From the NCBI RefSeq assembly GCF_003334355.1, contig NZ_QOWP01000007.1: DNA of 64,000 nt. One strand, written 5' to 3'. This document shows, piece by piece, positions 56,072 to 57,686 of the stretch. This DNA comes from Escherichia coli. GTDB lineage: Bacteria > Pseudomonadota > Gammaproteobacteria > Enterobacterales > Enterobacteriaceae. The notes beneath the pieces were generated by a model. It made no database searches. It was not told where the DNA came from and saw only the letters and a program-made list of their open reading frames with translations. The translations under genes were made by a program, and so were the position numbers. Position 1 is the first letter of the stretch. Each line of letters opens with the position of its first letter.

Positions 56072-56440
56072 CTATACCCCAAAGCTTTCGCCACAGCCAC
56101 ATTCATTCTGGGCTTTAGGGTTGTGAAATTTGAATATCTGATTAAGTCCTTCACGAACGAAATCGACTTCCGTGCCATCAATAAACGGCATCGCTTGCAG
56201 CGGGACAAACAGCTTCGCGCCGTCGTGTTCAAACAGCAGATCGTCTTTGTCCGGCTCGCTAACACTGTCGAGCACATAGCCAAAGCCCGCGCAGCCCGTT
56301 TGCTTCACGCCTAAGCGCACGCCGACCATACCTGGCTGCTTTGCCACCAGCTCGCGGATGTGTATCGCCGCTGCGGGTGTCAACGTTAAGCCTTGCCAGG
56401 CGAAATCTTGTGGGTTAAAGGTTCCTGAATGCATGTCCAT
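56072..56440 (-). CDS. sufA: A-type Fe-S carrier SufA (122 aa)
   Basis: Track ORF; C-terminal CGCGESF motif; first gene of suf operon. Confidence 0.93.
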
Positions 56441-56485
56441 CGATTTACCTCACTTCATCGCTTTCAGCGTATAACAGCATGTTAG

Positions 56486-56500
56486 TGATAATGATTATCA
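56486..56500. promoter_or_regulatory. Fur box in suf operon promoter region
   Basis: TGATAATGATTATCA near-palindrome about 45 bp upstream of sufA start; matches Fur consensus GATAATGATAATCATTATC. Confidence 0.75.
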
Positions 56501-56723
56501 GTTCAACCCAGCAAACGCAGGGGCTTTACCGTAAAACATGCTTTTTGCCTGCTTTTAATAAGCATAGACCCTGATGTGTGGGTTAACAGGCACGCTAAGA
56601 ATTAGGTATCTCATTGTTAGATAATGGTTATTATCTAAGGAGCATTAAGGCTGTGATGAAAAAGAAAAAGTTGTATTGAAAATGACTATTTAAGAGATAG
56701 GTAAAAAAGTGCAGCGTTCAGAA

Positions 56724-56800
56724 ATAAGAAAACCCTTAAGTCTGTGCGACACAGGCTTAAGGGTTTCTACCCCATCCGGCGCTTATCTCCGGCACTCTCA
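56724..56800 (-). ncRNA. rydB: Candidate small RNA (RydB-like) ending at a reverse-strand intrinsic terminator; boundaries approximate
   Basis: Hairpin CCCTTAAGTCTGTG/CACAGGCTTAAGGG at 56733-56763 preceded on + strand by A-run (T-run on - strand); recalled that sRNA RydB lies between sufA and ydiH; exact ends not determinable here. Confidence 0.35.
56726..56763 (-). terminator. Reverse-strand intrinsic terminator in sufA-ydiH intergenic region
   Basis: 14-bp stem (one G-U pair) with A-run on + strand 5' side, i.e. T-run after hairpin on - strand. Confidence 0.6.
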
Positions 56801-56987
56801 GTGGCTTAGCTCTTGAAGGGGCGATAAGAATAATCTCATAAAGCTAACCCGCCGTTTTAACACAAACTGCGATTAGTATTATTTTTGAACAATATCAGGC
56901 GGTAGATAAGCAGTATTAAGAAGGTCATCGAACCTGGACGGAGGTTAATCCAGGTCGATTTGGCGAACTTGCGGCATTAAGTCAGGA

Positions 56988-57176
56988 TCAATGCACGCCC
57001 AGACGCCAGGCAAAGTAGATTTCTTCTTTTAATTCAGCAGAAGAGAGAGTAAGCAGGTCAGCAAATTCAAGTTCTAGTTGTTTCAGACGTTTGAGATATT
57101 GGGCAGGTGAAAGATTGCTCTGGTCACGGCGTAAAAATTCAATGGCCAGCTGGGTGGGATCAAGTTGAGTAGACAT
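56988..57176 (-). CDS. ydiH: Small protein YdiH (62 aa); track ORF trimmed to MSTQLDPTQL start
   Basis: C-terminal 62 codons of track ORF 56988..57257 match recalled YdiH. Confidence 0.78.
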   Translation of the reverse strand: MSTQLDPTQLAIEFLRRDQSNLSPAQYLKRLKQLELEFADLLTLSSAELKEEIYFAWRLGVH

Positions 57177-57275
57177 AGCATCCTCGCTTTTAGACAAGAC
57201 CTGCACAGTATACCACCGTTTACTGTGCAGATAATGACCAAAAGCAATATGCGTCACACTTTTCTGGTGACAACG

Positions 57276-57686
57276 TCACAAAATGGCGGTCGTCAATCGT
57301 GACGAACAGCACAAACGCCCTTTCTCATCGAAGATTTCAATCTGCCAGACCTGGTGACGCGAACCGAGATGCAACGGTTTGCATACGCCGCGCACCCGCC
57401 CTTCTCGTGCCGAGCGGACGTGGTTAGCATTGATTTCCAGACCAACCACTTTTTGCTCACCTTCGGTACATAAATAACCGGCAACGGAACCGATACTTTC
57501 GGCCAGTACCACGGATGCTCCTCCATGCAGCAACCCGAAAGGCTGCTTTGTCCGCGAGTCTACTGGCATTGTCGCTTCAAGGGTGTCATCACCAATATGT
57601 TCAAAGCGAATATCCAGGAACCCCACCATGTTTCCTTCACCCATAGCATTCAGTGCTTCCAGGGTGATTTTCCGTTTCCATATCAT
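57276..57686 (-). CDS. menI: 1,4-dihydroxy-2-naphthoyl-CoA hydrolase, hotdog-fold thioesterase (136 aa)
   Basis: Track ORF; PaaI-type thioesterase sequence; start overlaps ydiJ stop. Confidence 0.9.
   Translation of the reverse strand: MIWKRKITLEALNAMGEGNMVGFLDIRFEHIGDDTLEATMPVDSRTKQPFGLLHGGASVVLAESIGSVAGYLCTEGEQKVVGLEINANHVRSAREGRVRGVCKPLHLGSRHQVWQIEIFDEKGRLCCSSRLTTAIL

Follow-up and report, generated by a model that had tools for sequence, protein, structure and literature searches.

rydB of Escherichia coli, a small RNA gene between ydiH and sufA, and the probable terminator hairpin missing from its mature RNA

The window analysed here is a stretch of 64,000 nucleotides of Escherichia coli DNA, in which the genes sufA and ydiH are separated by a gap of 547 bp (56441-56987), the length that the initial annotation had given for it. 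The known E. coli small RNA gene rydB lies in this gap, on the reverse strand. Window positions correspond to those of NC_000913.3 minus 1707946. The window shows 20 differences from MG1655 in 3 kb, none of which falls between 56384 and 58090, and the sufA-ydiH gap is identical to that of MG1655 base for base. Of 5,426 complete E. coli genomes, 5,422 contain the gap region, nearly all of them with an identity of at least 95%. The genes and features that are discussed below are as follows.

56072-56440, minus strand: sufA
56720-56732, minus strand: U-run of the terminator, UUUUCUUAUUUCU (as DNA, the T-run TTTTCTTATTTCT), read from the sequence
56733-56763, minus strand: terminator hairpin with 13 bp, one A.C mismatch and a UCG loop, from folding, repeat search and conservation
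56762-56822, minus strand: abundant (mature) RydB of 61 nt, GCCCCUUCAAGAGCUAAGCCACUGAGAGUGCCGGAGAUAAGCGCCGGAUGGGGUAGAAACC, from the RF00118 match and the Term-seq 3' end
56767-56834, minus strand: rydB as annotated in MG1655 (b4430, 68 nt; NC_000913.3 1764713-1764780), from the MG1655 record
56769-56822, minus strand: closing helix P1 of the core, 56822-56818 paired with 56773-56769, Rfam structure
56822, minus strand: G, predicted transcription start site (TSS), by homology to the Salmonella TSS string ending in TATGAGATTATTCTTATG
56830-56838, minus strand: predicted extended -10 element TGaGATTAT (TG at 56838-56837, hexamer GATTAT at 56835-56830), from alignment A1 (see below) and type-A relatives
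56855-56870, minus strand: conserved upstream block CGCAGTTTGTGTTAAAA, about -48 to -33 from the TSS, from A1 and type-A regions
56988-57176, minus strand: ydiH
57276-57686, minus strand: menI
57683-60739, minus strand: ydiJ
62426-62533, plus strand: RprA, Rfam match

The covariance match to the Rfam model of rydB (RF00118) runs from 56822 to 56762 on the minus strand, covers the full length of the model (positions 1-61 of 61) and scores 81.6 bits (E = 9.2e-18), the gathering score being 50 bits. The gene b4430 of MG1655, for which the synonyms tpe7 and IS082 are in use, lies on the same strand. Both agree with the initial annotation, which had placed RydB between sufA and ydiH and had tentatively pointed to the reverse strand between 56724 and 56834, coordinates that enclose the RF00118 match. 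Locus, strand, sequence, structure and the setting between ydiH and sufA are all the same for the window element and for RF00118 and b4430. Biologically there is no difference, only a shift of coordinates (68 nt in GenBank versus 61 nt). The rydB element is therefore already known, and what is described here is the re-discovery of an annotated small RNA and not a new element; added are its corrected boundaries and the recognition of the hairpin as a terminator that is missing from the mature RNA. This terminator is included neither in the MG1655 annotation nor in the RF00118 model. In the complete E. coli genomes inspected, the NCBI automatic annotation places no feature at the position of rydB. 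An open reading frame of 35 aa on the plus strand (56709-56816) runs antisense to the conserved RNA. Other Rfam matches in the window are two tRNAs, STnc550 and RprA (38607-38769, minus; 38488-38642, plus; 29506-29896, minus; 62426-62533, plus). A further match, HPnc0260, is probably not a real gene, because its 3' part is the antisense of the second tRNA.

Relatives of the RNA were collected by scanning one genome per species for the 20-mer GTGCCGGAGATAAGCGCCGG (RNA sense), which yielded at least 120 loci; L005, L042 and L071 were left out as chance or coding matches, leaving 117 loci. The first two are contigs of Bacteroidales MAGs that contain the exact 20-mer without RydB-like surroundings and are probably chance matches. 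Another match (L091) is a Salmonella-like rydB on a 300-bp contig filed as Microvirga antarctica, probably a contamination. The genera among the matches listed are Escherichia, Citrobacter, Salmonella, Leclercia, Silvania, Klebsiella/Raoultella, Enterobacter, Kosakonia, Phytobacter, Pantoea, Erwinia, Hafnia, Rouxiella, Serratia and Sodalis, all of them Enterobacterales, and the representatives of all sequence types score above the rydB gathering threshold (13 of 13). Among the matches listed, the RNA stands beside sufA, ydiH or menI only in Escherichia, Citrobacter, Salmonella, Leclercia and Silvania. Twenty-nine suf/ydiH-linked loci make up alignment A1, in which the blocks follow each other in the order CGCAaTTTGTGTTAAAA, a variable stretch, TATGAGAtTATTCTTAT, the core, and the hairpin AACCCTTAAG...CTTAAGGGTT with its T-run.

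In the Rfam structure, P1 encloses P2 (56810-56808 paired with 56796-56794) and the P3 hairpin CCGGAGAUAAGCGCCGG (56792-56776), and is followed by the single-stranded tail AGAAACC, which ends at C56762. When the structure is laid over A1, 95.4% of the cells are paired, compared with 27-56% in slid controls. The initial annotation had proposed a covariance analysis across enterobacteria, and in these 29 relatives changes on both sides are indeed found at nine pairs, three of the five in P1 and six of the seventeen in the terminator. For P1, GCCCC/GGGGC is replaced by GCUCC/GGAGC and by GUUCC/GGAAC. RNAalifold, applied to 36 diverse cores, independently re-derives the Rfam core structure, with compensatory changes at five P1 pairs. 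P2 and P3 are invariant in the collected set; for P3 this holds by construction, and the invariance of both is partly due to the search 20-mer, which lay in P3. Inside the covarying P1, AGAGCUAA and GAGUGCCGGAGAUAAGCGCCGG are nearly invariant. The mature 61-nt RNA itself folds no better than shuffled sequences (z = 0).

The hairpin is formed by an inverted repeat (56733-56746 and 56750-56763) with a loop of 3 nt, which A/T pairs lengthen to 56730-56746 and 56750-56766 (17 nt, 94% complementary). Its top, 56763, lies 225 nt past the ydiH stop, and the T-run is found on the reverse strand (56732-56720), both as first described. The stem of 14 bp that was described with them is correct for the plus strand, where 14 pairs including one G.U give -21.0 kcal/mol, but not for the RydB-sense RNA, whose stem (56763-56733) has 13 pairs and an A.C mismatch (-16.5 kcal/mol, z = -5.0); the position of the mismatch is occupied by U-A, G-C, A-U or a mismatch in the A1 relatives. 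With the A/U extension, the 51-nt segment of the minus strand folds with -22.0 kcal/mol, compared with -7.65 +/- 2.26 for its shuffles (z = -6.35); of 200 shuffles, not one is as stable. Within the 64-kb window, like strength is otherwise seen in just two structures, the lpp terminator and the RprA 5' hairpin. The U-run follows directly after the stem with 6 U among its first 8 bases and is interrupted (UUUUCUUA), while past the stem the plus strand offers TTTCTACC only. The hairpin starts at the last base or two of the RF00118 match, 7 nt after P1 in E. coli, and lies wholly outside the GenBank rydB feature. A consensus terminator scan of the window does not list the rydB terminator, because its stem rule allows no mismatch. 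Like the intrinsic terminators of other small RNA genes, for example RprA, that of rydB is a G+C-rich stem-loop with a U-run right after the RNA body, and it is likewise conserved by compensatory changes. In conclusion, hairpin and U-run are very probably the transcription terminator of RydB, which would also stop read-through from ydiH.

The initial annotation had considered that the hairpin might simply end the ydiJ-menI-ydiH transcript. That it is the terminator of this transcript, or of ydiH, with RydB merely lying in front of it, is in our judgement unlikely. Several observations would fit such a role: the stretch from the ydiH stop to rydB contains no canonical terminator, its hairpin at 56957-56929 lacking a U-run; Term-seq shows no ydiH 3' end upstream of rydB; and any read-through on the minus strand must meet the hairpin. 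However, the hairpin with its T-run stands at a fixed short distance from the core in the 29 relatives (7-8 nt after P1, with the T-run on the RydB side in 29/29), and it also occurs where the core is beside neither ydiH nor sufA. In Citrobacter, ydiH and rydB are about 2 kb apart with other genes between them, and the hairpin stays with rydB. Among the matches listed, a hairpin with T-run is found within 160 nt downstream in the sense direction at 83 of 117 loci, compared with 36 of 117 for the antisense and 28 of 113 for the upstream controls, and the sequences of the terminator hairpins are unrelated between genera. Since hairpin and T-run accompany cores that do not adjoin ydiH, the terminator belongs to RydB; it travels with the RydB core and not with ydiH. 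Ending the ydiH transcript is thus set aside as the main explanation, and as an extra role of the RydB terminator it is compatible with the data.

Two further repeats are located around ydiH. The hairpin CGACCUGGA...UCCAGGUUCG (56929-56957, minus strand), 30 nt past the ydiH stop, has a folding energy of -16.5 kcal/mol (z = -3.5) and no U-run, and may serve to stabilise the mRNA 3' end or to terminate transcription weakly. The other, located after the menI stop and ahead of the ydiH start, is a long imperfect inverted repeat (57186-57245) with arms of 28 nt, 79% complementary, and a loop of 4 nt, which overlaps the promoter-like site TTGTCA-16-CATATT of ydiH.

The 3' end of RydB in E. coli is given by published Term-seq data for MG1655, in which position 1764708 of the minus strand, i.e., 56762 in the window, is listed as 'primary, rydB', with 2,174,030 reads in LB at OD 0.4 and 4,136,120 at OD 2.0, the lpp terminator having, for scale, 175,710 and 82,465 reads (Adams et al., 2021, PMC7815308). 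The sequence printed in the table begins 50 nt before the 3' end and continues for 10 nt beyond it, as verified on the lpp, aspU and aspV rows. The end ...GGGGUAGAAACC-3' at 56762 is the last base of the RF00118 match, two bases into the 5' arm of the hairpin. By its Term-seq reads, which are open to ligation-efficiency bias, the rydB 3' end is far stronger than that of the lpp terminator; therefore RydB appears to be a very abundant RNA. The curated table contains no other 3' end between 1764500 and 1764999. None is called at 1764666-1764699 either, where the U-run lies, in a table that lists dominant stable and not nascent ends and would miss a short-lived precursor; termination at the U-run is thus inferred and not seen directly.

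For the 5' end, dRNA-seq of S. Typhimurium gives the RydB TSS as the string ATCGCCATTTGTGCTAAAAAGGCGCGCTCTCTTTATGAGATTATTCTTATG, whose last base is +1 (Ramachandran et al., 2014, PMC3963941); this convention was verified on the RybB and RydC rows. The +1 G of Salmonella stands directly before CCCCUUCAAGAGC and is homologous to G56822 of E. coli, which is position 1 of RF00118. E. coli would possibly start at C56823 instead, because it has one extra discriminator base. From G56822 it is 59 nt to the hairpin base and about 100 nt to where the U-run ends; thus the 5' end within about 120 nt upstream of the terminator, which the initial annotation had asked for on this strand, has a counterpart in the primary Salmonella TSS mapped by homology. 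The GenBank 5' end at 56834 is located 12 nt upstream of this predicted TSS, on the -11 A of the promoter element, and is probably imprecise, and the GenBank 3' end is 5 nt upstream of the mapped one. The 68-nt coordinates of rydB in GenBank and EcoCyc disagree both with the Rfam model and with the published mapping of the two ends. From the published ends in Salmonella (5') and E. coli (3'), it follows that the abundant RydB is about 61 nt long (56822..56762) and lacks both the hairpin and a tail of the Hfq type.

The 3' end at 56762 would be made by nuclease processing. RNase II and other 3' exonucleases come to a halt about 7 nt before a duplex; cleavage by an endonuclease and subsequent 3' trimming up to this distance would presumably fit the RydB end. 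tRNA precursors such as leuX, 4.5S RNA and 6S RNA are similar to RydB, i.e., they are abundant, have the 5' end in a terminal helix, carry a short single-stranded 3' tail and have the 3' terminator removed; unlike for these stable RNAs, no nuclease is assigned and no housekeeping function is known for RydB.

Upstream of the predicted TSS, the extended -10 element is conserved, T58, G59, A62 (-11) and T66 (-7) being invariant in A1. Most type-A relatives have TG at -15/-14 and the hexamer GAwTAT at -12 to -7, relative to the G before CCCC, a geometry with which the Salmonella TSS at the homologous G is in accordance. The conserved block further upstream has G26, C27, T30, T34, G35, A38 and A39 invariant in A1 and is kept in 71 distinct type-A upstream regions of different genomic contexts. 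In Pantoea, Klebsiella and Hafnia it takes the form of a palindrome, TTAGCA-N5-TGCTAA, centred near -41.5, which suggests a site of an unknown regulator. The block is likely to be a transcription factor site or an UP-like element. On the plus strand, 56855-56886 of E. coli is scored by the promoter scan as a promoter-like TTAACA-17-TATTTT, antisense towards ydiH.

Other arrangements were considered and rejected. The pair -35 GTGTTA / 17 bp / -10 TATGAG would make the invariant G its -7, and its predicted +1 is unlike the Salmonella TSS. Sigma-54, sigma-E and sigma-28 motifs, sought by eye in the upstream block, are unfit in spacing or sequence. A small open reading frame starting with the ATG at 56839 (13 codons) has its frame broken by a 1-nt indel in Citrobacter and Salmonella. 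With an internal promoter, for which the RcsB-like box described next would be the activator site and which would give a TSS near 56784 and an RNA of about 60 nt keeping the hairpin, the -10 would fall in the variable loop; besides, transcription must include both strands of P1, given their covariation.

The -10 region of rydB, ATGAGATTATTCTTA (56824-56838, minus strand), resembles ATGAGACGAATCTGA (62376-62390, plus strand), which is located at -50 to -36 of rprA and which we take to be an RcsB box. The two match at 11 of 15 positions (13 of 15 for Citrobacter sp. FP75). According to a 2024 preprint, RcsB activates a rydB reporter; an RcsB-like box over the rydB -10 would predict repression, contrary to this reported activation.

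As a whole, the locus is very probably best explained as a rydB gene whose transcription is terminated at the hairpin, which is then removed from the RNA. A sigma-70 promoter with the extended -10 element TGaGATTAT (56838-56830), behind the conserved block, would start the RNA at G56822. The RNA would fold into a compact core in which P1 pairs the very 5' end, and the polymerase, on meeting the stem-loop 56763-56733 and the U-run, would stop and leave a precursor of about 96-100 nt. Removal of the hairpin would then trim the accumulating RNA to C56762, i.e., P1 plus AGAAACC. The same stop may also shield the suf promoter region, which is controlled by OxyR, IHF and Fur, from read-through out of rydB and ydiH. 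It is plausible that, as a second role, the terminator insulates the suf control region from the very active rydB and from ydiH read-through. About 20 nt downstream of the rydB terminator is CCTATCTCTTAAATAGTCATT (56683-56703, minus strand), conserved in Escherichia and some Citrobacter; with its CTAT-N7-ATAG form it is presumably the OxyR site of the suf promoter.

The fate of the hairpin also bears on the relation of RydB to Hfq. Hfq-dependent small RNAs, RprA among them, keep hairpin and U-tail in their mature form and bind Hfq with them, whereas the abundant RydB loses the hairpin. Mature RydB lacks the Hfq module, its dominant 3' end at 56762 being upstream of the hairpin, and no ARN motif is found in it. 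The loss of hairpin and U-tail removes the usual Hfq-binding module and explains why RydB does not behave as Hfq-dependent; a mature RydB of 61 nt without hairpin or poly-U fits the Hfq-independent class, in which it has been listed, and the weakness of its co-immunoprecipitation signal in Salmonella is in line with this. One could suppose, on the contrary, that hairpin and U-tail are part of a functional Hfq-type RydB of about 100 nt, of which the 61-nt form is a decay product. The Salmonella annotation does give RydB a length of 105 nt, Hfq co-immunoprecipitation in Salmonella enriches it 2.5-fold, on very few reads (4 versus 10), and RepRanger links an intrinsic terminator to rydB. However, position 56762 is the sole curated 3' end and has millions of reads in two LB conditions, RF00118 ends at the same base, and the Hfq-independent listing and the missing ARN motif also speak against such an RNA, so that we consider it quite improbable.

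It is very improbable that core and terminator form a riboswitch-like attenuator, with the P1-closed core acting as the sensor of a ligand or protein and as the switch for read-through towards sufABCDSE or, in other species, towards other genes. The conserved junction sequence, the covarying closing helix and the terminator 7 nt after P1 would suit such a device, as would the terminator-less copies that immediately precede co-oriented genes (osmC, a prpA/B-like phosphatase gene, a membrane-protein gene) in Rouxiella/Serratia, Pantoea and Mangrovibacter. However, no conserved anti-terminator pairing is found in A1 or the 117 listed loci by eye, which is a weak test; a candidate pairing GGGG/CCCU was dropped, showing no covariation in A1. 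The change of P1 to GGAG leaves the terminator arm unchanged, and the terminators of other genera share no sequence with P1. Moreover, the suf operon is served by a promoter of its own, with a Fur box, some 250 nt farther downstream, and outside the suf group no common downstream gene is found among the matches listed. Equally hard to credit is that transcription itself, through a pause or Rho-dependent release at the hairpin foot, produces the 3' end at 56762 without processing. This would account for the lack of a longer 3' end in the Term-seq table, but there is no U-run or hairpin just upstream of 56762 except P1, the conserved hairpin and T-run would be left without a role, and curated Term-seq reports dominant stable and not nascent ends.

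Concerning the function of RydB, its overproduction is reported to lower rpoS expression; in Salmonella it is repressed by ppGpp, and its level falls 20-fold after AZT treatment. With the terminator-trimmed rydB gene as the preferred reading of the locus, there is some small chance that the RydB core, of which the matches listed show one to three copies per genome across Enterobacterales, does not act by base pairing but is a mobile module of structured RNA to which a protein or small molecule binds. Its covarying P1 around the nearly invariant AGAGCUAA and GAGUGCCGGAGAUAAGCGCCGG would suit such a module, as would the cores of several genera that have no terminator and would open transcripts towards osmC, a PrpA/B-like phosphatase or a membrane protein. 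If this were true, RydB of E. coli would be the stand-alone, terminator-trimmed and very abundant version of a cis-acting element, which would account for 25 years without a known RydB target.

Two or three RydB-family copies, which differ in sequence type, occur in several genomes, and E. coli carries one. The genomes with more than one copy include Rouxiella, Serratia sp. M24T3, Pantoea, Sodalis and an enterobacterial-looking record named Martelella alba (the sets of loci being L025/L026, L029/L030, L033/L034, L068/L069, L022/L023, L010/L053/L054, L111/L112, L119/L120 and L074/L075). Some cores without a recognisable terminator are located 50-160 nt upstream of co-oriented genes for an OsmC-family peroxiredoxin, a PrpA/B-like Ser/Thr phosphatase or a membrane protein that has no NCBIfam match. 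The terminator-less loci belong to Serratia sp. M24T3 and Rouxiella (L030, L034, L069), Pantoea (L024, L040, L055, L063, L095, L111) and Mangrovibacter (L016, L037, L047). In the osmC-linked copies, the core is then followed by TCTATACTTA, which resembles a sigma-S -10 element.
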